IMG/VR virus record: IMGVR_UViG_2563366875_000002
Coordinates: 1 to 40,230 of that record
Strand: one strand, 5' to 3'
DNA from: a virus
Taxonomy: Duplodnaviria; Heunggongvirae; Uroviricota; Caudoviricetes
Length of the DNA stretch: 40,230 nucleotides
Program-made: the position numbers and the translations under genes
Notes under the pieces: generated by a model
Told to the model about the DNA's origin: nothing
The model's database searches: none
Seen by the model: the letters and a program-made list of their open reading frames with translations, nothing else
In this document: positions 1,459 through 36,807 of the stretch, one piece after another
Numbering within the stretch: the stretch's first letter is position 1
How the letters are laid out: every line of letters begins with the position of its first letter

Positions 1459-2622
1459 TTACACATCATTAGTACCTTCCTTATTTTTTGACTGGGACAA
1501 ATTTGGGACCGATGGGTTCAGGATCGAGTCTATTTGCCGTGCGTGTTCGGTAAGGTGATTAGGTGCAAGGTGAGCATATCGACGAACCATTTCGATAGAC
1601 TCCCAGCCTCCCATTTCCTGTAACACTGACAACGGGACTCCGGCTTGAACCAGCCAACTTGCCCAGGTGTGTCTCAAGTCGTGAAATCTGAAATCATCAA
1701 TACCAGCCCGTCTCAGCGCCGCTTTCCAGGCTGTGTTTGCGTCATACCGCATCTTCCTTACTGTTGGCGCTTTCGTTCCGTCTGGTTTGGTACAGCTTTC
1801 CTTGTACACAAATACCCAACGGTGATGATTCCCGATTTGTTTTTTCAATACGCGACATGCAGTATCATTCAGCGCAACGCCAATTGCGCGGTTTGATTTA
1901 CTCTCTTCCGGGTTTATCCATGCCACCCGGCGCTGCATATCTATTTGTTGCCATTCAAGGTTGATGATGTTCGAGCGTCTTAAGCCTGTTGCCAGTGCAA
2001 ATTCAACAACAGACTTTAATGGCTCCGGACATTCATCAATCAGCCTTTGTGCTTCATGGGGCTCCAGCCAGCGGATCCGTTTATTCTTTGGTTGAGGCAC
2101 TTTAATAATTGGTGCCTTATCCAGCATTTTCCATTCACGCTCTGCGGCTCTTAGTAGGGCCTTTATAAATGAAAGATGCGTAGCCTTCGTTGCAACGGAC
2201 GCTGGTTTTGGCGTGTATTCTGGAACAGGTTTCCCTTTTTTTCTGCATGCTTCTGCCCTGAGTTTCCAGTTTTCCTCATGACGTCGGTTCGTCATTTTCT
2301 GCATTGCTGAATAAATTTTTGATTCAGTAATGTCTCTTAGTTGCATTCCTGCGAAATGTTGAAGCCAGAATCCGATCCGGCTTTTGTCATCGTCCAGTGA
2401 TTTTTTATGTGCTTTCTCTTCAAGCCACCTGACACACGCTTCCTCGAACGTTATATCAGGTATTTCACCAAGTTTGCTGACCCGCCATGCTTCAGCCTTT
2501 AGCTTGTCATGGAGTTCTGTCGCCTGCCTTTTGTCCTTTGTTCCAAGAGACTGTTTAAATCTTTTACCGTTCGGCAATGTGAAACTGGCGTACCATATTT
2601 CACCTCTGCGGAAGAGTGACAT
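1459..2622 (-). CDS. tyrosine-type site-specific integrase
   Basis: 387 aa; C-terminal catalytic region [40 protein letters not shown] (HxxR...Y); N-terminal arm-binding-like domain; adjacent to tRNA attachment site. Confidence 0.9.
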
Positions 2623-2849
2623 TTTCTTTCCTCTGTTATGCCATCACCCGCGCTCACCTGGACAGTATGCAGCGGAGACTGAAGAGCCGCAATGCAGGCT
2701 TGTCGTGTTGTGAGGTAAGGAGATTTATTCTTAGTGGGATCTTTGCGTGTTGCCTGAAGACGCCCTGTGCGTATCCAGTTAATGGCAGTCGGTCTGGATA
2801 TCTTGAGAAAATGACAGGCCTCATCGAGTGTGAGGCTGTATGGCTCCAT
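2499..2849 (-). CDS. excisionase-like DNA-binding protein (Xis/AlpA-type HTH)
   Basis: internal Met of the 2499..2933 ORF ([31 protein letters not shown]...); helix-turn-helix signature; directly upstream of and overlapping the integrase start; 3' end uncertain. Confidence 0.55.
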
Positions 2850-3154
2850 TATTTCACCTCTTGCTGTGACATTGTTGAGAAATGGATACCAGCTCGTTGC
2901 TGCCAGACGATCCAACCGAGAGTCATATCCCATGCCATGTATTCGTTATCGCCGTTTTTTGCTCTCCGACGATCTACTAAGTCACCAAAACGCTTTTCCA
3001 TGAATAATTCATAAGCTTCGCGTTCATCTGGTTCTACTTCCAGAGATAGGAGTGCGATTTCATAAGCACGGCGCTCAATATCGTCTCGCACGTCAAGGCT
3101 GCTGATACGCTCTTTAATTTCTTTAATCAGTTCTTTGTCGGTAAAAGTGGTCAT
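2849..3154 (-). CDS. hypothetical phage early protein
   Basis: 101 aa ORF in the leftward operon, stop/start coupled to neighbours; no recognised motif. Confidence 0.5.
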   Translation of the reverse strand: MTTFTDKELIKEIKERISSLDVRDDIERRAYEIALLSLEVEPDEREAYELFMEKRFGDLVDRRRAKNGDNEYMAWDMTLGWIVWQQRAGIHFSTMSQQEVK

Positions 3155-3516
3155 TATGCTCCAGCCTCCGGTGCTTTTGGCATTACTGCCCAGTGAGTGA
3201 TATTGACGTTTTCAAGGTCCCCGACCTGAAATGTCCACTGCCATTCTCCGGTTTCTTTTTGTCCCCAGGTGTACCAGAGAGAACGCCAGCCAATTAGCCA
3301 GCCTTCTCCGTTAGCATCGAATAACAAAACACTTTCATTTGCTGGTGGCAGTTCAGTTGACACTGGTATTACTTTGTTTTCCTGTGCTGCACATTTAGCT
3401 TCAAGCGCATCGAATTTACGCACCAGGTATTCAGCATCCGTTTCATTCACTTTCAGATCTCGCGGTACACATCTCCCACGAAGAAACCCTTCCATTTCGA
3501 AAACATTCATGCGCAT
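3154..3516 (-). CDS. hypothetical phage early protein
   Basis: 120 aa ORF in the leftward operon, overlaps upstream gene end; no recognised catalytic motif. Confidence 0.5.
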   Translation of the reverse strand: MRMNVFEMEGFLRGRCVPRDLKVNETDAEYLVRKFDALEAKCAAQENKVIPVSTELPPANESVLLFDANGEGWLIGWRSLWYTWGQKETGEWQWTFQVGDLENVNITHWAVMPKAPEAGA

Positions 3517-4043
3517 TTGCGTAACTCCGATAATTCGTTAAAGCGTTCCATAAACATCCCGTAGGCATGGCCTGGAGCCAGTGGAATCACGTTGAACATC
3601 TCTGTTGCCGGGATACCTTCCAGCACAGGCCAGAAAGAGCCATCATCAAGCCCGAGATCGCGGCGTTCGGTTGCCAGCATAATGAGATCGGCATATTTCA
3701 CTGGCGTGCTCATAACAGGAGGTAACCCGTATTTCTCACGGATTACGGCGTCTATTTTTTCTTCCATCCGTTTATAGTCAGGAAGAAGTCGTTTCAGTGG
3801 TGCGGGGATGTCCTGGCAATATGCTTCTGTTGCATCATGCATTAAAGCTTCAAAAGCAAATTCCTGCGGCACCAGCTGGCTGCAAAGCACCGCATGTTGG
3901 GCGACACTGTAGAAGTGTGAAAGATGTCCTGCAAAGCGACAGATATTTGAAAGGGAAACCGCGATATCGTTAATAACGATGTCGTCTTTATTTATCCTGT
4001 CATAATAAAAATGCTTCCCGGAAAAAGTTTTAATAAATGACAT
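3507..4043 (-). CDS. HD-domain metal-dependent phosphohydrolase
   Basis: H...HD signature (VAQHAV ... LMHDATEA); start taken at internal ATG 4041-4043 preceded by GGAG (gtggagaacaaaATG) rather than the ORF-track start at 4070. Confidence 0.75.
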   Translation of the reverse strand: MSFIKTFSGKHFYYDRINKDDIVINDIAVSLSNICRFAGHLSHFYSVAQHAVLCSQLVPQEFAFEALMHDATEAYCQDIPAPLKRLLPDYKRMEEKIDAVIREKYGLPPVMSTPVKYADLIMLATERRDLGLDDGSFWPVLEGIPATEMFNVIPLAPGHAYGMFMERFNELSELRKCA

Positions 4044-4140
4044 TTTGTTCTCCACGTATATGCGCTGCACCGCGCTGAATTCGGGTAAAAGGAAGCCCTC
4101 ACCGTCCGGCGATTATTGAGTCAATTACATTTCCATAAAT

Positions 4141-4380
4141 GCCCCCGTAGGGGCGGTTAGTTTCTCCACAAAACAGAGAAGAACACCTGCGGTGGCAGCC
4201 GCCCGGATGGATTGGGTTATGAGCCCGTCGTCCGGTGATGCTCTTCTCTGTTTTGTAAAAAGGACGGTACCAGCCGGAAGCAAGGGTACAAACTGGTACC
4301 GCCAGGACTACACACAGCATAAAGTTGTGGTGCCGGGTGCCTCCCGGTGCCTGGCGAAGGTTGCACACCAGGCGGGTGTG
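4141..4380. other. GC-rich, highly structured non-coding segment (candidate structured RNA or cis-regulatory element); strand unknown
   Basis: hairpin 4141-4154; 15 bp perfect inverted repeat 4168-4182/4242-4256; 8 bp inverted repeat 4266-4273/4293-4300; hairpins 4333-4347 and 4364-4380; only overlapping, low-complexity ORFs in all frames. Confidence 0.35.
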
Positions 4381-4587
4381 TATCCACAGAAGGTCGACTG
4401 TCAGCCTCAACCTTAACCCGCGTGCGCTGAGCCGCATTCACCACAACGCTAAGGATTCTCTCTGGTTGAAAATACTTAGCTGTTATGTGCCTGCTTTTAG
4501 CCACATCAGGCGAGGTGGACCTAGTTATTCCCCAACAACAAGGATTCGGTTAATCTGGTTATCCCCAACAACGCAAAAGGAAAAGAA

Positions 4588-5434: not shown

Positions 5435-6109
5435 TTAGGCTTTGATTTTGTATCTTCTTGGTTTTCCTGAGAAAATCACTGTACCAATTATAGAGCAATT
5501 ACCGTTGATCTTAATGTAAGGCTCAGGCCAGTTTGGGTTTAACGCTTTGAGATAACGCTGTGTCCCATCTTCTATCAACCTTTTGAAGGTGGTTTCGCCT
5601 GTATCGTGCATCAATGCAATAACGTCGTCACCGTGGCAGGCAGGTACTTCAGGATCGACAAAAATCATGTCTCCCGGGCGGTACTCATCAATCATTGAAT
5701 CACCTATCACCCGCAAGATATAAGTCATTTCCCCACAGGGTACAGGGCAGGGATACGTTTCTGCTGTGCTCAAATCAACCTCAGAATATCCAACTTCTTT
5801 CCATGCTCCGGCCTGTACCCATGATATGACAGGGACTAATGTGATTTGTTTATTAGTGATTGAAACATCAGGTTTTTTTGTGATGTTCGTTGTCTGGTGT
5901 TCTTGATCGAGCCATCCGACAGGCAGGTCGAAACATTTTTCGATGTGTCGTGCCATGCTGTCACCGATATTTTTAGTAGCACCATCTCCCATAAACCTGC
6001 TGGTCTGGGTTGGCTCGCGATCAATCATAGTGGCAAAGGAAGAATTCCCGCCAACACCATCTCTCAGTTTTCTGGCGTTAGACCGCCGGATGTCATGGAT
6101 TGTTTTCAT
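5435..6109 (-). CDS. cI-like phage repressor (HTH domain plus LexA/S24-type autocleavage domain)
   Basis: 224 aa; N-terminal HTH region; C-terminal peptidase S24-like region with GDSM serine motif and downstream lysine; divergent from a cro-like gene across palindromic operators. Confidence 0.88.
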   Translation of the reverse strand: MKTIHDIRRSNARKLRDGVGGNSSFATMIDREPTQTSRFMGDGATKNIGDSMARHIEKCFDLPVGWLDQEHQTTNITKKPDVSITNKQITLVPVISWVQAGAWKEVGYSEVDLSTAETYPCPVPCGEMTYILRVIGDSMIDEYRPGDMIFVDPEVPACHGDDVIALMHDTGETTFKRLIEDGTQRYLKALNPNWPEPYIKINGNCSIIGTVIFSGKPRRYKIKA

Positions 6110-6199: not shown

Positions 6200-6400
6200 A
6201 TGAAAGCGTATTGGGACTCTTTAACCAAAGAACAGCAGGGCGAGTTGGCCGGAAAAGTTGGCTCAACACCTGGCTACTTACGGCTGGTTTTCAATGGCTA
6301 TAAAAAAGCCAGTTTTGTGCTGGCTAAAAAACTTGAGCAATGCACGTCAGGTGCAATTACGAAATCTGACTTAAGACCGGATATCTATCCGAAAGATTAG
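6200..6400 (+). CDS. Cro-like small DNA-binding regulator
   Basis: 66 aa from internal ATG 6200 with RBS GGAGG; HTH-like GKVGSTPGYLRLVFNG; divergent from repressor. Confidence 0.7.
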   Translation: MKAYWDSLTKEQQGELAGKVGSTPGYLRLVFNGYKKASFVLAKKLEQCTSGAITKSDLRPDIYPKD

Positions 6401-6431
6401 CAGAACACTTTCAATTTTTAACCACAGAACG

Positions 6432-6995
6432 ATGAGGCTAACCGTGGGTAAGCATCACTGGAAAATAGAAAAACAGCCTGAGTGGTACGTGAAAGCTGTC
6501 AGAAAAACTATCGCGGCGTTGCCGGGTGGTTACGCTGAAGCGGCTGACTGGCTCGATGTAACAGAAAACGCTTTATTCAACCGCCTTCGTGCAGATGGCG
6601 ATCAGATTTTCCCGCTGGGATGGGCAATGGTTTTACAGCGTGCTGGTGGCACTCACTTCATTGCTGATGCTGTGGCGCAGTCTGCAAATGGCGTCTTTGT
6701 GTCTCTTCCTGACGTCGAGGATGTGGACAACGCCGATATCAACCAACGCCTGCTGGAAGTCATTGAACAGATCGGCAGTTATTCAAAACAGATTCGTTCA
6801 GCAATTGAAGACGGTGTAGTGGAACCGCATGAGAAGACAGCAATTAACGATGAGCTGTACCTCTCAATTTCGAAGCTGCAGGAGCATGCAGCACTGGTCT
6901 ACAAAATCTTTTGCGTTTCAGAAAGTAGTGACGCCCGCGAGTGTGCAGCTCCGGGCGCCGTGGCGTGTCGTGACTGTGGAGAAACTAACGCATGA
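6432..6995 (+). CDS. putative cII-position regulatory protein (hypothetical)
   Basis: 187 aa ORF directly after cro-like gene in the rightward early operon; assignment by position only. Confidence 0.5.
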
Positions 6996-7330
6996 ACAGT
7001 TTAACAACACACTACCGTCGCTCGCAACTGATTGCGCTTCCTGTACCGGGTGGAAAAGCGAAGGTGGAGTATTGCTATGCAGTAAATGTACTAGGTGACA
7101 GGGAAATTGTAACCCACAGCTTTGCAGAGTGGGCTGTGGGTGATTTCAACCGGCAGAAGGAGACAGTCCTTTGCGACAAGTTAACCGCTGGTTCAAAGAT
7201 CACTACGGAGTGCCCGTCAGAGTCATTCGTTGGGAGCCGGAAACACAACGGGTTATCTACCTCCGTGAAGGCTATGAGCATGAGTGCTTCAGCCCGCTCG
7301 AACAGTTTCGTTGTAAATTCAGGGAAATAG
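6992..7330 (+). CDS. hypothetical protein; C-terminal third looks out of frame (possible frameshift)
   Basis: N-terminal part protein-like; after about 7180 the product becomes Ser-rich low complexity while the -1 frame (7144..7350) reads as a natural protein. Confidence 0.35.
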
Positions 7331-7339
7331 AGGTCGGTC

Positions 7340-8281
7340 ATGAGCACTAAATTAACCGGCTATGTATGGGATGGTTGCGCTGCGTCAGGCATGAAATTAT
7401 CCAGCGTGGCAATTATGGCCCGCCTGGCTGATTTCAGTAATGACGAAGGTGTGTGCTGGCCATCAATTGAAACCATTGCCCGTCAGATTGGCGCGGGGAT
7501 GAGTACCGTCAGAACGGCTATCGCACGGCTGGAAGCAGAAGGCTGGTTAACGCGTAAGGCGCGTCGCCAGGGTAACCGCAATGCGTCGAATGTTTATCAG
7601 CTTAACGTTGCGAAGCTTCAGGCAGCGGCATTTTCTCAACTGTCAGATTCTGACCCGTCAAAATCTGACGCATCAAAATCTGACCCGTCAAAATTTGATG
7701 CGTCGAAATCTGGCAAAAAAGCGGGTTTTCACCCGTCAGAATCTGGCGGGGATCCGTCAGTAAAATCAAAACATGATCCGTCAGATAAAAAAACTTCTCG
7801 TCCGGACGCTTCGCAACCGGACACGCAGACGGCTGAACAGGAGTTTTTAACTCGCCATCCTGATGCGGTTGTATTCAGCCCTAAAAAGCGCCAGTGGGGA
7901 ACGCAGGATGATTTGACCTGCGCACAGTGGCTCTGGAAAAAAATCATCGCCCTGTACGAGCAGGCCGCCGAATGTGACGGCGAGGTGGTTCGTCCCAAAG
8001 AACCGAACTGGACAGCCTGGGCAAACGAAATTCGCCTGATGTGTGTGCAGGATGGTCGTACTCACAAACAAATCTGCGAGATGTACAGCCGCGTCAGCCG
8101 CGATCCGTTCTGGTGCCGTAACGTGCTCAGCCCGTCGAAGCTGCGGGAAAAATGGGATGAGCTTTCCCTGCGCTTATCGCCGTCCGTCAGCACGTACACA
8201 GAAAAACGCGAAGACCCGTACTTCAAAGCCAGTTACGACAACGTGGACTACAGCCAGATCCCGGCAGGATTCAGGGGGTGA
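7340..8281 (+). CDS. phage replication initiation protein (O-like; N-terminal HTH, internal repeat linker)
   Basis: 313 aa; N-terminal HTH-like region (CWPSIETIARQIGAGMSTVRTAIARLEAEGWL); repeated DPSKSDASKSDPSK linker encoded by DNA iterons; position between cII-like gene and RusA/Q. Confidence 0.75.
   Translation: MSTKLTGYVWDGCAASGMKLSSVAIMARLADFSNDEGVCWPSIETIARQIGAGMSTVRTAIARLEAEGWLTRKARRQGNRNASNVYQLNVAKLQAAAFSQLSDSDPSKSDASKSDPSKFDASKSGKKAGFHPSESGGDPSVKSKHDPSDKKTSRPDASQPDTQTAEQEFLTRHPDAVVFSPKKRQWGTQDDLTCAQWLWKKIIALYEQAAECDGEVVRPKEPNWTAWANEIRLMCVQDGRTHKQICEMYSRVSRDPFWCRNVLSPSKLREKWDELSLRLSPSVSTYTEKREDPYFKASYDNVDYSQIPAGFRG
7641..7795. repeat. iteron-like direct repeats (putative origin of replication inside the replication gene) followed by an A-rich tract
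   Basis: at least 4 tandem copies of about 18 bp (CCGTCAAAATCTGAC variants) plus degenerate copies, then ATAAAAAAACTTC. Confidence 0.55.
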
Positions 8282-8283
8282 TC

Positions 8284-8772
8284 ATGAGTCTTTTGAATGA
8301 AGTTCAGAAATACATTGAAGCCCATCCGGGGTGTACTTCCGGAGACATTGCGGATGCTTTTGCAGGTTACTCACGGCAGCGCGTTCTGCAGTCAGCAAGC
8401 AAGTTACGTCAGAGTGGGCGTGTGGCTCACCGTTGTGAAGGGGATACACGCAGACATTTCCCGCGCCTGACTGAGAGAGCGCAGGAGGCGGAACCGCAAC
8501 CAGTTCGTGAAACCAGACCTGTGCGCAATTTCTATGTCAGCACTAACGACCCGCGGGAGATTTTGTGCCTGACCCGCCAGGCTGAAGAACTGGAGTCCAG
8601 GGGCTTATACCGTCGTGCTGCAACGGTGTGGATGGCGGCATTCCGTGAAAGCCACTCCCAGCCAGAACGAAACAATTTTCTGGCGCGTCGTGAGCAGTGT
8701 TTACGGAAAAGCAGCAAGCGCGCTGTATCGAGTGATGAGTGGTATCTGTCAGGGAATTACGTGGGGGCGTAA
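8284..8772 (+). CDS. putative PerC-family-like transcriptional regulator
   Basis: ATG 8284 after GGGGG; C-terminal region AEELESRGLYRRAATVWMAAF resembles the PerC/Pch signature as recalled from memory; family call tentative. Confidence 0.45.
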   Translation: MSLLNEVQKYIEAHPGCTSGDIADAFAGYSRQRVLQSASKLRQSGRVAHRCEGDTRRHFPRLTERAQEAEPQPVRETRPVRNFYVSTNDPREILCLTRQAEELESRGLYRRAATVWMAAFRESHSQPERNNFLARREQCLRKSSKRAVSSDEWYLSGNYVGA

Positions 8773-9098
8773 TGACGACGTTAACTCAATGCCAGCAGCA
8801 GGTGCTGGATATGCTGATTTCTTACCAGAAAGAACGTGGCTTCCCGCCAACCAATCAGGAGGTGGCAACCATGCTGGGATATCGTTCGGTGAATGCAGCG
8901 GTGGAGCATCTTCGCGCACTGGAGAAAAAAGGCGTCATCACGATAAAGCGTGGCGTGGCCCGGGGGATAACGCTTCATACCGCGGTGAAGGACGACGACA
9001 GCGAGGCGGTCGGGATTATCCGCTCACTGCTTGCCGGTGAGGAAAACGCCAGGCTGCGTGCAGCCCACTGGTTACATGAGAGGGGCCTGAAAGTATGA
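8772..9098 (+). CDS. LexA N-terminal DNA-binding-domain homologue (no peptidase domain)
   Basis: 108 aa; LTQCQQQVLDMLISYQKERGFPPTNQEVATMLGYRSVNAAVEHLRALEKKGVITIKRGVARGITL aligns by eye with the LexA winged-HTH domain; no S24 domain follows. Confidence 0.7.
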   Translation: MTTLTQCQQQVLDMLISYQKERGFPPTNQEVATMLGYRSVNAAVEHLRALEKKGVITIKRGVARGITLHTAVKDDDSEAVGIIRSLLAGEENARLRAAHWLHERGLKV

Positions 9099-9484
9099 AG
9101 TTGATCCTTCCTTTCCCGCCCAGCGTGAACACGTACTGGCGACACCCCAACAAAGGGGCATTTGCTGGTAAGAGCCTGATAAGCGCGGCGGGGCGAAAAT
9201 TTCAGAGCGCGGCGTGTGCAGCAATAGTTGAGCAGTTACGTCGTCTGCCAAAACCAACGTCGGCACCTGCTTCAGTGGAGATCGTGTTGTTTCCTCCGGA
9301 TAACCGGATCCGCGATCTGGACAACTATAACAAGGCGCTGTTTGACGCCCTGACCCACGCGGGTGTGTGGGAAGACGACAGTCAGGTGAAAAGAATGCTG
9401 GTGGAGTGGGGACCGGTTATCCCGGAAGGGAAGGTCGAGATCACTATCAGTAAGTACGAGAAAACGGCGGGTGCAGCCGCCTGA
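9095..9484 (+). CDS. rusA: Holliday junction resolvase RusA
   Basis: 129 aa; motifs LPFPPSVNTYWR and RDLDNYNKALFDALTHAGVWEDDSQV typical of RusA. Confidence 0.88.
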   Translation: MKLILPFPPSVNTYWRHPNKGAFAGKSLISAAGRKFQSAACAAIVEQLRRLPKPTSAPASVEIVLFPPDNRIRDLDNYNKALFDALTHAGVWEDDSQVKRMLVEWGPVIPEGKVEITISKYEKTAGAAA

Positions 9485-9503
9485 TTAAGAGGAGAAACGA
9501 AGT

Positions 9504-11709: not shown

Positions 11710-13041
11710 TTACTGGATGAATGACATTTGATTAATATATTTTATCAATAACTCTCTGGGTGTAGTACTCCAAAAATTTATGTGTTCATAATCAGTATAA
11801 ACATTTGTGAATTTTTTAAGTTCTTCATCACTTTTAGGGGCAAATCGCTCATTAAGAGTAATACTGTCTTTAATTATTCCGAAGAATACAATGGATATTT
11901 CAGGGATTTGCGATCTTCTCTCATAAGAATAAGGTATTTCTTTTATGTTAAGCAGGTCTGCTAAATAAGATATAGATTCAGCGGTAATTTCTTGTTTTAG
12001 TTTTTCCTTGTTACCAAAGCAATGTATGAAGGCAGCTACGACAAAGATCATATTTATTAAAGGATCACTGCTTTTGTTCTCATCGTCGTTTAACAGTTGA
12101 AAAATGTTAAGATTGCGTGAAAATGTTTGTGTTTCACGTAATGATAAGTTGGTTCGTTGAATTAAATCACGGATAAAGTAACCTGATAATCTATTGATTT
12201 TATTCAATAACCTTGTTTTTTCTACAAGGTAATCCCAATATATAACAGAGGCTTTACATACGTTGTGACCATTTATTAAACATGTATCTGGAAGCGTGAT
12301 GGTATATTTTATAAACTTGTCAAGATACTTTTGTGAGTTAATGCTATAACCATAAATATGATTTATAGATGCTTTTAATTGTTCTGTGTTTGTAACTAAA
12401 ATAAAAAAGACATTATTGATGTCAAAAATGTGTTTTATTGTTTCAATGACATTTGTTGAAAAACTCGGCTTACATCGGTCTAATTCATCAATTATAATTA
12501 CGATTTTTTGATTTTTTGATATGCTTTCGATGCAGGATTTAAGTGAATTTATGTTTTTCTCTGAGTCCATATGGTCTTCAAGCAAATTTTCAATAGTCCC
12601 ATCTATTGCTGCATTGCTTGCTTTCTTCATCGCATCTTGGAATTCTTCGGCAACTTCACTAGCCTCCTGTCGTAAAAACCAACCTGCACCAGCTTTTAGT
12701 ACCGTTTTTAAACCAAAGCGAATTGCAGGAAGAGATCTCTTAATGAAGTGTTGTTTTTCTTCCTCAGGCAAAATGCTGGCAATTGCAGAGGTTATGAGAA
12801 GTAATGGAGATTCTGCATGATCCCCTTTAAAGGCATCAATATAAACAACTTTAGATTCAGTTTCTTGCTCAATAATGAGATTTTTCAGTTTGATACTAAA
12901 TTCTGTTTTCCCTGTTCCCCATGCGCCGTCTATTACCAGTGGTGAAATGTCTGCCTCTGGTTTTAGCAACTTGATGATATTTTCAGCGATGTTTCTTCGT
13001 TGGAACTCGTCACGTTCAGTGAAAGATAGTGTATCTAACAT
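11710..13041 (-). CDS. KAP-family P-loop NTPase
   Basis: 443 aa; Walker A DGAWGTGKT (res 38-46), Walker B-like VIIIDELDRC; strongly AT-rich compared with flanking phage genes. Confidence 0.85.
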   Translation of the reverse strand: MLDTLSFTERDEFQRRNIAENIIKLLKPEADISPLVIDGAWGTGKTEFSIKLKNLIIEQETESKVVYIDAFKGDHAESPLLLITSAIASILPEEEKQHFIKRSLPAIRFGLKTVLKAGAGWFLRQEASEVAEEFQDAMKKASNAAIDGTIENLLEDHMDSEKNINSLKSCIESISKNQKIVIIIDELDRCKPSFSTNVIETIKHIFDINNVFFILVTNTEQLKASINHIYGYSINSQKYLDKFIKYTITLPDTCLINGHNVCKASVIYWDYLVEKTRLLNKINRLSGYFIRDLIQRTNLSLRETQTFSRNLNIFQLLNDDENKSSDPLINMIFVVAAFIHCFGNKEKLKQEITAESISYLADLLNIKEIPYSYERRSQIPEISIVFFGIIKDSITLNERFAPKSDEELKKFTNVYTDYEHINFWSTTPRELLIKYINQMSFIQ

Positions 13042-13506: not shown

Positions 13507-13655
13507 AGGGCTTTTAATTTGTGAAAATGGGCGGCTGGTGGGTGTTGGTAGCACCTGCCAGCCATTCGCTCATGCCTACTGGTCACAAGCGAACCACGGC
13601 CCACTGCTTTAGCGCAAAAGCAGAGTGAGCCTACCAGAGTTACGCTTACTGATCC

Positions 13656-14708
13656 ATGAAAAATACTGTAAAAATAAACAGTGTTGATTTAATCAACGCT
13701 GATTGCCTGCATTTTATTCAGTCCCTGCCTGATGATTCCATTGACCTGATTGTTACCGATCCGCCTTACTTCAAGGTGAAACCCAACGGTTGGGACAATC
13801 AGTGGAAAGGGGACGAAGATTACCTTAAGTGGCTGGACCACTGTCTGGCCCAGTTCTGGCGGGTGTTGAAACCTGCCGGAAGCCTTTACCTGTTCTGTGG
13901 GCATCGCCTGGCATCTGATATTGAGATCATGATGCGTGAACGTTTCAACGTGCTTAACCATATCATCTGGGCGAAGCCGTCCGGACGTTGGAATGGGTGT
14001 AATAAAGAAAGTCTGCGCGCATATTTTCCTGCCACAGAGCGCGTTCTGTTTGCTGAACATTACCAGGGGCCATATCGCGGCAAAAGTGACGGCTATGCGG
14101 CAAAAGAAAGGGAACTCAAACAGCACATAATGGCACCGCTGATATCGTATTTCAGGGATGCTCGTGCCGAACTGGGTATAACGGCAAAACAAATTGCCGA
14201 AGCCACAGGTAAGAAAAATATGGTTTCCCACTGGTTTGGTGCCAGTCAGTGGCAGTTGCCGAATGAGGCTGACTATCGGAAGTTACAGGCACTGTTTTCC
14301 CGTATAGCGGCAGAGAAGTTTCAGGAACAACAACTGGAACAACCACACCACCAGCTGGTGGCATCTTATGATTCACTGAATCGCAAATATTCTGAATTGC
14401 TGGATGAGTTTAAATCTCTCCGGCGCTTTTTCTCCGTATCAGTCTCCGTGCCTTATACCGATGTCTGGACGCATAAGCCCGTTCAGTTCTACCCGGGTAA
14501 ACATCCGTGCGAGAAACCGGCGGATATGCTCCGGCAAATAATCAATGCCAGTAGTCGACCTGGTGATCTGGTTGCTGATTTCTTTATGGGATCCGGTTCC
14601 ACAATAAAAGCAGCAATGGCGCTGGGGCGTCGGGCGTTAGGTGTTGAACTTGAGTCAGAGCGGTTTAATCAGACGGTGAAAGAGGTAAGTGAACTGGTGG
14701 GGAAATAA
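13656..14708 (+). CDS. DNA N6-adenine methyltransferase (orphan, beta-class amino-MTase)
   Basis: 350 aa; motif IV DPPY (LIVTDPPYF) near N-terminus and motif I FFMGSGST near C-terminus; no adjacent restriction endonuclease. Confidence 0.88.
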   Translation: MKNTVKINSVDLINADCLHFIQSLPDDSIDLIVTDPPYFKVKPNGWDNQWKGDEDYLKWLDHCLAQFWRVLKPAGSLYLFCGHRLASDIEIMMRERFNVLNHIIWAKPSGRWNGCNKESLRAYFPATERVLFAEHYQGPYRGKSDGYAAKERELKQHIMAPLISYFRDARAELGITAKQIAEATGKKNMVSHWFGASQWQLPNEADYRKLQALFSRIAAEKFQEQQLEQPHHQLVASYDSLNRKYSELLDEFKSLRRFFSVSVSVPYTDVWTHKPVQFYPGKHPCEKPADMLRQIINASSRPGDLVADFFMGSGSTIKAAMALGRRALGVELESERFNQTVKEVSELVGK

Positions 14709-34484: not shown

Positions 34485-35228
34485 ATGCATCGTATAGACA
34501 CGAAAACCGCGCAGAAGGATAAGTTCGGCGCGGGTAAGAACGGTTTTACCCGTGGTAACCCCCAGACCGGCACGCCTGCCACCGATCTGGATGATGACTA
34601 CTTTGACATGTTGCAGGAGGAGCTTTGCAGCGTTGTGGAGGCGTCCGGTGCCAGCCTGGAGAAGGGGCGGCACGACCAGCTACTTACCGCGCTTCGCGCG
34701 CTGCTGTTAAGCCGCAAGAATCCGTTTGGCGATATCAAATCGGATGGCACGGTGAAAACGGCTCTCGAAAACCTTGGTTTGGGAGAAGCGGCAAAACGGA
34801 ATGTGGGCAACGGGGAAAACCAAATCCCTGATATGTCTTTCTGGACGGTTACTGGTGGCAATGGAAATTTTGTGATTCGTCAACCTGACGGGCTAATCAC
34901 TCAGATGGTTACTGTAAGTATAAGCGGTCCAGTGGCGATGAATGGAATGACTGATAATGCTTATGCCATTACAGGTTCTAATAAGTCTTATATTGCCACA
35001 GCCACATTGCCCTTTGTATTTCCTAATAAGGTGCTGGGCGTTATCCCTCTGGTATCAACAACAGCCTATGGGGGTGTATCCAGTAATATTACAGGTTCAT
35101 ACGCGACGGCGGTTTGTTCTTTTGCCGCTGTCCGGGGGAATAATACGATTGTATTCAAAGTCGACAAACCACTGAATGCAGCCTTTCCTTCAGATACCAG
35201 CGTCTCAGCGTTAATCATTGGACGGTAA
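34485..35228 (+). CDS. tail fibre protein (constant N-terminal part plus currently expressed variable C-terminal part)
   Basis: 247 aa; N-terminus [21 protein letters not shown] typical of Mu S-type fibres; crossover repeat inside the gene at 34774-34788. Confidence 0.8.
34774..34788. repeat. left recombination site of the invertible segment (TTGGTTTGGGAGAAG; core AAAACC-TT-GGTTT)
   Basis: perfect 15 bp inverted repeat with 36727-36741; palindromic core resembles gix/hix crossover sites. Confidence 0.7.
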
Positions 35229-35230
35229 TA

Positions 35231-35674
35231 ATGAACTCAGTATTCTTTTCACCCGGAAGTAAAAGTTTTTATCTACAAGAATTGTTTCCAGAATATGAGG
35301 ATGCGGGAACGCTTCCAGATGATGTTATTGAAATTACCCGAGAAACATATGAGCAATTTCTTGGGCTGCATCCAGAAGGGAAAGAAATTGGCGCTGACAG
35401 TTCAGGACGGCCAATATGGATTAATTCCCCACCGCCTTCAAAAGAGGATGAGGTGTTGATGGCTGAAATGAAAAAAATATCTTTGGTTTCAGAAGCCAAT
35501 ACTTACATCAATACCCATCAGTGGCCTGGCAAAGCTGCTATTGGTCGGCTGAAAGGTAACGAGCTGGCGCAATATAATTTGTGGCTGGATTATCTGGACG
35601 CACTGGAACTGGTTGATCCCTCCAGTGCTCCAGATATTGAATGGCCTACGCCTCCGGCAGTTCAGGCCAGATGA
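35231..35674 (+). CDS. tail fibre assembly protein
   Basis: 147 aa immediately after fibre gene; C-terminal region shared with the convergent minus-strand copy. Confidence 0.8.
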   Translation: MNSVFFSPGSKSFYLQELFPEYEDAGTLPDDVIEITRETYEQFLGLHPEGKEIGADSSGRPIWINSPPPSKEDEVLMAEMKKISLVSEANTYINTHQWPGKAAIGRLKGNELAQYNLWLDYLDALELVDPSSAPDIEWPTPPAVQAR

Positions 35675-36248
35675 CATCCGGTGCGGTGCTGGTATCTGTT
35701 GCCGTCACCGCGTCAATGTAATCCAGCGCAGCGTTAAGTCGGGCGGTTTCTGCCTGCGTCAGGTTCCGTCCGGCCTGTAATTTCAGTTGAATCAGACTGA
35801 TAGAAGCCATTGCTGTATCAATCAGCGACTGGCGCTGTGCTTCTGCTGCATCTACTACGGCGCTATGCTGTGCCTCGGTATCCGTCACCCATTTCTCACC
35901 ATCCCATTTATCGTATGGCGTTAACGGGGCGATAGTGGTTGTATTATCAGGGTAATCACCCGGTGCTGTGATTTCTTTTGATTCTCCTGTTTCGGTGTTA
36001 TAGACGATTTCACCGCGATGGTCTGGTACATATTCCCATGAGTTAAAATCTGCAGAGCGGCAGATTGCATAACCAGCTTTGTAGGTGCCTGGAGCATCTA
36101 AACAGGAATATGCCGGAATGCCGACACCAACAGCAAGATATTCAGTTGAAGCTGAAATATACTCCCGACTCATGACGTCAAAGTTATAAACAGTAATTTC
36201 TCCTGCCATAGTGGCAATTAATTCACTGTTTAATTCTGCGTTATTCAT
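35646..36248 (-). CDS. alternative tail fibre assembly protein
   Basis: 200 aa convergent with the plus-strand copy; conserved C-terminus (DVIWPELPEA versus DIEWPTPPAV). Confidence 0.78.
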   Translation of the reverse strand: MNNAELNSELIATMAGEITVYNFDVMSREYISASTEYLAVGVGIPAYSCLDAPGTYKAGYAICRSADFNSWEYVPDHRGEIVYNTETGESKEITAPGDYPDNTTTIAPLTPYDKWDGEKWVTDTEAQHSAVVDAAEAQRQSLIDTAMASISLIQLKLQAGRNLTQAETARLNAALDYIDAVTATDTSTAPDVIWPELPEA

Positions 36249-36741
36249 TATGCAGCCCTCACAATATAGTTAAAAGCGACATTTCGTGGGCGTGTTTCAT
36301 TCGCACCTGCAGGTTTAGTCGTTGCCGCAACAACACCACCCTCTGTAATAGCCGGGTTAGGAATTGGGTAATTATCGAAGTCAATGGCCGGAGACAGGGG
36401 CGTGATTTGTTTTAAAATCGTGGTGCCTGTAAAACTTTCCAGAGTCTGGTCGTTAGTTCGTGAAGTCCAGATTCCCCAATAGTGGTTATGACTGACAATC
36501 GCACCGTCCTGAAGCGTTAATAATCCCCTTCCGTTATCCACTCCACGTCCGTCATCCCAGCCACGAATAAACTCACCGCGTAAATCAGGCAATTTATTTG
36601 TCGGGTAAGCCTTTGCCAGTTCCGGGTATTCTTCAGCAGAAAAAGCCGCACCATTGCACTTCAGCCAGCCTGTCGGCGGAGTGGCGGAAGGCCACGGAAC
36701 AGGCACACCAACAGGTAATGCAGAGCCTTCTCCCAAACCAA
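36248..36741 (-). CDS. alternative tail fibre variable C-terminal part (no own start; fused to the constant part after inversion)
   Basis: reading frame begins at the crossover repeat with VGLGEGSALPVG; tail-collar-like LPDLRGEFIRGWDDGRG motif. Confidence 0.7.
36727..36741. repeat. right recombination site of the invertible segment (inverted copy)
   Basis: CTTCTCCCAAACCAA is the exact reverse complement of 34774-34788; lies just upstream of the invertase gene. Confidence 0.7.
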
Positions 36742-36807
36742 CGTTTATGAAAATGTAGAAATAACGAGCAAATGGCATCATTCCTGCTTTTGTCAGGGAG
36801 ATCTACC

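Follow-up and report, generated by a model that had tools for sequence, protein, structure and literature searches.

A prophage-encoded LexA DNA-binding domain with a conserved helical tail in place of the protease domain: a candidate RecA-insensitive LexA surrogate

What can a phage do with the DNA-binding domain of LexA when the self-cleaving domain is gone? The question is raised by a gene at positions 8772–9098 of the window, which is the whole 40,230-nucleotide stretch analysed here (IMG/VR virus record IMGVR_UViG_2563366875_000002, Caudoviricetes). The window represents an SfV/CPS-53-like prophage whose insertion site is thrW, next to proA. A sequence-only reading had described the gene as a phage-encoded LexA DNA-binding domain without the autocleavage domain, and had supposed that its product could occupy SOS boxes without being cleavable. 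The description holds, down to the phage origin and the exact coordinates. Its interpretation overlooked the dimerisation problem, the conserved tail of the protein, the precedent of GIL01 gp6 and the commonness of this rusA-linked gene. With a probability of roughly 40%, the protein is considered here as a RecA-insensitive LexA surrogate that is dimerised by its tail, binds LexA-type operators in lytic growth and represses LexA-controlled promoters.

The gene and the parts of its product are as follows.

8772–9098, + strand: LexA-like gene, a complete open reading frame of 108 residues plus stop (open reading frame list and sequence)
8772–8981, + strand: winged helix-turn-helix, residues 1–70, with helices at 6–22, 28–35 and 40–52 and a beta-wing at 56–68 (AlphaFold2 secondary structure)
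8886–8927, + strand: recognition helix, residues 39–52, SVNAAVEHLRALEK against SPNAAEEHLKALAR in LexA (alignments)
8994–9080, + strand: two-helix hairpin, residues 75–103, with helices at 75–88 and 93–103, standing where LexA has its linker and S24 domain (AlphaFold2 model)

Fold Identity and Loss of the Protease Domain

The reading frame opens with ATG at 8772 and closes with TGA at 9096–9098. The same start is called by RefSeq in an identical copy, under the name "LexA family transcriptional regulator", and a nucleotide search returned a 100% identical match with this label. The protein has exactly the sequence of WP_000210164.1, and SfV orf42 is its homologue. An in-frame GTG lies upstream at 8739. 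Because the alignment with LexA begins at residue 2, the ATG at 8772 is favoured over it.

The Pfam profile LexA_DNA_bind (PF01726) is matched over its whole length (1–65 of 65) with E = 2.9e-19 and 69 bits against a cutoff of 23.7. A phmmer search of PDB aligned the N-terminal domain of E. coli LexA (1lea) residue for residue from position 2 (E = 7e-16). The single-sequence AlphaFold2 model was poor, with a predicted local distance difference test (pLDDT) score of 60.9, and the model built with the family alignment (mean pLDDT 83.7) was used instead. Foldseek superimposed this model on the LexA–DNA complex 3JSO with a root-mean-square deviation (rmsd) of 0.9 Å over 68 columns at 50% identity; residues 1–70 fit 3JSO and 1LEA at 0.9–1.2 Å with the same identity. 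The assignment to LexA_DNA_bind is far beyond chance.

The S24 peptidase domain is missing. No match to PF00717 was found in the 108-residue protein by the Pfam profile search, and the NCBIfam equivalog for lexA, TIGR00498, is covered only at positions 1–91 of 203, with 70.8 bits, which is under its cutoff of 110.95. The protein ends at residue 108, lacks the dimerisation domain together with the protease and contains no equivalent of Ser119 or Lys156 of E. coli LexA. In contrast, the CI-like repressor of the same prophage (5435–6109, − strand) does match Peptidase_S24. The names given to the family in databases ("transcriptional repressor", "SOS-response repressor and protease LexA", "RecA-mediated autopeptidase") were transferred by annotation. 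Those that mention a protease are over-annotations, since the protein carries no protease domain. The PADLOC scan gave only a negligible match for membership of this protein in a defence system. On the best explanation, the gene would derive from the 5′ portion of a lexA gene of gammaproteobacterial origin.

Conservation of the DNA-Reading Surface

The residues of helix III with which E. coli LexA contacts DNA are Ser39, Asn41, Ala42, Glu44 and Glu45, a list taken here from a secondary source (PMC3091678). Asn41 is described as contacting operator position 15 (PMC5999292). The alignment with LexA, proposed as a check by the sequence-only reading, finds four of the five identical (S39, N41, A42 and E45), so these contacts are kept rather than lost; the exception is E44, which is replaced by V. 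H46 is identical as well. Residues 39–46 read S39-V40-N41-A42-A43-V44-E45-H46, against S-P-N-A-A-E-E-H in LexA. The wing residues R64-G65-I66 are also as in LexA.

The same surface is kept across the family. A collection of 113 full-length members was reduced at 80% identity to 14, among which identity to the window protein drops to about 40%. S39 is present in 14/14 of these non-redundant members, N41 in 13/14, H46 in 12/14, A42 in 11/14 and E45 in 10/14, two further members having Asp in place of E45. K53, G54, G61, R64, G65 and I66 are invariant (14/14). Position 44 is never Glu and is occupied by a hydrophobic residue family-wide, so that an acidic side chain near the DNA is gone. If anything, this loss would favour binding.

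All members with a named source organism come from Enterobacterales (Escherichia, Salmonella, Citrobacter, Cronobacter, Enterobacter, Leclercia, Kosakonia and Hafnia). As far as is known, Enterobacterales share the LexA box CTGT-N8-ACAG. The DNA-reading surface of the family appears to stay LexA-like while the remainder drifts, a pattern that fits selection for LexA-type specificity. The contact residues kept at about 40% identity and the restriction of the sources to Enterobacterales provide the strongest indirect argument that CTGT-type half-sites are recognised, and such recognition is predicted for the window protein.

The C-Terminal Two-Helix Tail

LexA dimerises and binds DNA only with its C-terminal domain, and once cleaved it no longer binds (PMC3091678). 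A bare N-terminal domain would thus be a weak operator binder, and a poor one at SOS boxes. In the window protein the position of the linker and the C-terminal domain is taken by the two-helix hairpin. Its pLDDT is about 87–89, while the preceding linker at residues 71–75 is of low confidence.

The tail is conserved. Among the 14 non-redundant members, A97 and L101 are invariant, G105 is present in 13/14, and A79, R84 and L86 are each present in 11/14. A hydrophobic pattern is shared, consisting of A79, I/L82-83, L86-87, A93, A97, W/Y/F100, L101 and G105. Whole-length Foldseek matches are weak (ranks 13–26, rmsd 6–12 Å), and all of them are dimeric winged helix-turn-helix repressors: MepR/MarR, MntR and a BlaI-like protein. 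MarR/MepR and MntR/DtxR resemble the window protein in combining the winged helix-turn-helix with short helices and in dimerising by helices outside it. BlaI and MecI likewise dimerise through extra helices outside the winged helix-turn-helix. No sequence relationship to MarR/MepR or MntR/DtxR is seen, and the comparison is only an analogy in support of the tail as a dimer interface. From the model and the conservation, the tail is probably a replacement dimerisation (or interaction) module for the lost C-terminal domain of LexA. A different dimer interface could alter the operator spacing.

Several database proteins of 140–350 residues (P0132, P0133, P0148, P0152, P0153 and others) contain two tandem LexA_DNA_bind stretches. 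They would be a covalent "dimer" solution to the loss of the LexA dimerisation domain.

In the HMMER alignment, L86-L87-A88-G89-E90 of the tail stands opposite V82-A83-A84-G85-E86, the cleavage-site motif of LexA. This correspondence suggests an origin by truncation of lexA. The segment is predicted to be helical, and no catalytic domain is present in cis. G89 is kept in just 6/14 family members, and a functional cleavage site here seems doubtful.

Selection and Distribution

A protein that resembles a truncated LexA, and in which LLAGE still aligns with VAAGE, might be taken for a decaying, functionless remnant of a captured lexA. The substitution pattern contradicts this. Against the Salmonella salamae homologue, the ratio of nonsynonymous to synonymous substitution rates (dN/dS) is 0.126 for the whole gene, 0.034 for the N-terminal domain and 0.29 for the tail. 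The gene and its tail are under purifying selection. The length of the family proteins is held at 105–112 residues, and the tail is conserved across Enterobacterales prophages. Intact copies at 95% nucleotide identity or more are found in 2233/5426 complete E. coli genomes. The pseudogene explanation is effectively refuted by dN/dS and conservation, and is hardly credible.

The gene is not new. It is a common, already annotated gene of the nin region and a member of the catalogued family PHROG_362 ("transcriptional repressor"), whose profile is matched at 1–106 of 106 by residues 1–108 (E = 1.4e-59). No difference is seen from the PHROG_362 and RefSeq "LexA family transcriptional regulator" proteins of lambdoid prophages, which are the same family at the same position before rusA. 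The gene is present in SfV (orf42, labelled "unknown"), SfII, SfIV, mEp460, cdtI, the Shiga toxin (Stx) phage Stx2a_1447/WGPS2, fifteen Stx2c phages, phiSTEC1575-Stx2k and others. The window protein is 97–100% identical to the proteins of SfV, SfII, SfIV, mEp460, cdtI and the Stx2a/2c/2k phages. The family is listed in a catalogue as pham 237 (pfam01726, 15 Stx phages) (PMC8136144). A literature search found catalogue mentions only, and no functional study of this E. coli phage family. The finding is thus the correct reading of an already catalogued, functionally uncharacterised gene in a large share of E. coli prophages.

Operon Position and Linkage to rusA

The LexA-like gene is directly flanked by two genes.

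8278–8772, + strand: PerC-family (yfdN-like) gene (Pfam PerC, E = 7e-10; RefSeq annotation of the identical locus)
9095–9484, + strand: rusA, Holliday-junction resolvase gene (Pfam RusA, E = 6e-15)

The stop codon of the PerC-family gene shares one base with the start codon of the LexA-like gene (TAATG), indicating translational coupling in one operon. The TGA of the LexA-like gene in turn overlaps the start of rusA (ATGA). All three belong to a chain of + strand genes, overlapping or separated by short gaps, that extends from the replication genes as far as Q and corresponds to the lambdoid nin region. The order in the early right operon is CI-like repressor, Cro-like, CII-like, replication protein, PerC-like, LexA-like, RusA, KilA-N, DUF968 and Q. 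No sigma-70-like promoter was found on the + strand from about 6300 to 9485, and none directly upstream of the LexA-like gene. Based on this gene chain and the lack of a promoter match, we infer that the LexA-like protein is a delayed-early product made from pR after induction or infection, and that its gene is silent in the quiescent lysogen.

The gene is the direct upstream neighbour of rusA in 11/11 loci compared. A small open reading frame intervenes in one of them and a reverse one in another, and the stop/start overlap with rusA is usual. Downstream in all 11 loci follow an optional Ant or KilA-N gene and then DUF968 and an antiterminator gene. The upstream genes vary (Dam, MT-A70, PerC, cytosine methylase), as do the replication modules. 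The loci include relatives of 42–50% identity from Cronobacter, Enterobacter, Salmonella and one further genome.

It might be considered from this synteny that the protein is no transcription factor at all. It could be a DNA-binding accessory of nin-region recombination or replication, for instance one that partners RusA or DUF968 or brings them to their target, with the winged helix-turn-helix serving solely as a general DNA-binding module. The adjacency to rusA and the following DUF968 and antiterminator genes persist in 11/11 loci, even where protein identity is only 42% and although the replication modules upstream are of several unrelated types. However, a non-specific DNA binder would not be expected to conserve the sequence-specific recognition residues of LexA. 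The synteny may also reflect one nin-region block that was inherited together. Presumably rusA is widespread without a LexA-like gene, as in DLP12 and phage 82, and this is counted against the accessory role as well. Such a role seems improbable.

Candidate LexA-Type Operators

LexA-type boxes were searched for with an approximate position weight matrix (PWM), made from 20 E. coli SOS boxes. Two sites in the window exceed 18.9 bits, the highest score reached in 50 shuffles. These two sites and a weaker neighbour of the second are listed below, with no strand assigned.

13664–13683: candidate LexA-type operator TACTGTAAAAATAAACAGTG, 22.4 bits, within the range of genuine E. coli sites
38844–38863: second strong LexA-type box CACTGTGTTTGTATACAGTA, 21.1 bits
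38870–38889: weaker neighbouring box TACTGTGCAAATAAGCAGCA, 26 bp downstream of CACTGTGTTTGTATACAGTA, 14.2 bits

The first box is in codons 3–9 of the late-region N6/N4 DNA methylase gene (13656–14708). It also occurs in loci L003–L009. It was compared in eight diverged phages, which include phages of E. coli, Citrobacter phiNP, Hafnia yong2, Morganella IME1369_02, phiP27 and Stx2a_1447. The CTGT and CAG(T) cores are invariant in all eight, while the AT-rich spacer varies. The invariance extends to synonymous positions: Thr is always ACT, Asn/Ser is always xxC, and Ser is always AGT. These patterns suggest that the box in the methylase gene is a functional LexA box. They also suggest that LexA exerts control, or acts as a roadblock, where the late operon begins, which in some Stx phages is upstream of the stx genes. 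A literature search found no paper on this box.

It is possible that host LexA is the protein that targets this box; the LexA-like protein can be put forward as its reader only speculatively. The box also occurs in phages that do not carry the LexA-like gene (phiP27, phiNP, Flotzy and LLS), so host LexA suffices as an explanation. For this reason the box was rejected as a specific partner site of the LexA-like protein.

The non-coding leader upstream of the methylase gene (13560–13655) is strongly conserved in the same eight phages, for example in the blocks GGCCCAC, AAAGC and GAGCCTA. Candidate roles are those of a qut or terminator element, a structured RNA, or some other element that regulates the late transcript.

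The second box and its weaker neighbour lie in AT-rich intergenic DNA at the window's right end, between the hypothetical genes 37547–38644 and 39589–40230. The RefSeq annotation of the identical genome has no gene at this position. The stretch 38844–38889 could belong to a small SOS-regulated gene or toxin that has escaped annotation.

A near-perfect LexA box, TACTGTTTATACATACAGTA (27.3 bits), is seen in a related E. coli prophage (locus L011, 2069–2088), inside its CI-like repressor gene. That prophage carries a LexA-like gene of 50% identity.

A dedicated operator of the LexA-like gene was sought as CTGT-Nx-ACAG with x = 0–20 in the window and five related loci, and by the PWM scan of all loci. 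None of the sites is consistently associated with the gene, and this candidate was rejected.

Comparison with GIL01 gp6

The closest known parallel is gp6 of GIL01/Bam35, a truncated LexA homologue of 66 residues that binds its own palindrome overlapping the −35 element of the promoter P3 and activates late genes (PMC6182141). Both are phage-encoded LexA DNA-binding domains without the cleavage domain, and both would be early gene products, the timing of the window protein being deduced from its operon position. They differ in that gp6 derives from a Bacillus LexA, has no tail and has a demonstrated function. A BLASTP comparison of the window protein with GIL01 ORF6 (gp6) gave no alignment at E ≤ 100. 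Homology to gp6 was therefore rejected, and two independent derivations are indicated.

By analogy, the window protein might be a phage-specific regulator whose LexA-derived domain reads an operator of the phage, which might be a CTGT palindrome of variant sequence or different spacing. It would activate or time a phage promoter, with no repression of host SOS genes. The activity of gp6 on late transcription is a precedent for this. According to Foldseek against BFVD, stand-alone LexA-domain proteins are widespread in phages and occur commonly in a large number of phage groups. The tail might impose a half-site spacing of its own, and the conserved LexA-type box at the start of the late-region methylase gene could be such a site. 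On the other side, the window family keeps the base-contacting residues of host LexA, unlike gp6, whose recognition helix is altered and whose operator is its own. No conserved candidate operator is seen near the gene or before the Q and lysis genes in related loci, and the methylase-gene box is shared with phages lacking the gene. The scans of the window and related loci found no candidate for a gp6-like site over the −35 element of a late promoter; late control is here by the Q antiterminator, and late transcription in these phages is already under Q or another antiterminator gene. A regulator of this kind is a serious candidate but an unlikely one.

Possible Role as a LexA Surrogate

The role considered at the outset, that of a RecA-insensitive LexA surrogate, is proposed to work as follows. 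The tail would render the LexA-like protein dimeric, and the dimer would bind LexA-type operators containing CTGT. Because RecA* would be unable to inactivate it, the protein would be a RecA-insensitive stand-in for LexA in lytic growth, while host LexA stands destroyed. LexA-controlled promoters would then be silenced again, including those of host SOS genes and of LexA-controlled genes in co-resident mobile elements. Counted in favour of this role are the LexA-type operators in this prophage (13664–13683 and 38844–38863), together with the LexA fold, the retained DNA-reading surface, the conserved and confidently modelled tail, the missing cleavage domain and the position in the operon.

Several points weigh against it. 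As described above, the methylase-gene box also occurs where the LexA-like gene is lacking. No LexA-type box is consistently near the gene, and the PWM scan found none of at least 12 bits in loci L012, L013 and L014. The literature search returned no experimental DNA binding, dimerisation or SOS effect for any family member. The new dimer interface may set another half-site spacing, in which case canonical SOS boxes might not be the targets. The one characterised analogue, GIL01 gp6, is an activator (PMC6182141). Finally, the constant association with rusA is a hint that the protein serves recombination or replication rather than SOS control.

A broader form of the surrogate role is that of a phage "anti-SOS" factor, a RecA-proof LexA surrogate that represses again the host SOS regulon and the LexA-gated functions of competitors, meaning antirepressors of co-resident prophages and colicin or lysis operons. 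This form is rather doubtful. The gene is carried by more than 40% of sequenced E. coli, Stx2-phage lysogens among them, and if this form were true, SOS dynamics, competition in polylysogens and possibly the induction of toxin phages would be shaped by it. The share of the probability left over by the surrogate, the gp6-like regulator, the RusA/DUF968 accessory and the remnant belongs to functions not yet conceived.

If the family does bind SOS boxes, common prophages of E. coli, Shigella and Salmonella would encode an uncleavable LexA mimic, and Stx2a, Stx2c and Stx2k converting phages would be among its carriers. The mimic could switch SOS off again after induction, which would bear on mutagenesis, persister toxins, cross-induction of prophages and release of Shiga toxin. 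It would also add to GIL01 gp6 a second, independently derived example of phage reuse of the DNA-binding domain of host LexA.

Other Features of the Prophage

Between Q and the late region, the opposite strand carries an inserted gene for a KAP-family P-loop nucleoside triphosphatase (11710–13041, − strand). The match to PDC-S20, a candidate defence family of PADLOC, is almost full length (E = 4.5e-177). The equivalent slot in another strain (locus L001) holds a NYN-domain gene, which marks the site as a variable hotspot for morons or defence genes.

The tail-fibre and tail-fibre-assembly genes of the window (34485–36781) correspond to positions 2377–4579 of locus L002, whose genome matches the right end of the window at 100% identity. 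There they adjoin a truncated pinE-like recombinase gene. This invertible host-range segment is seemingly disabled.

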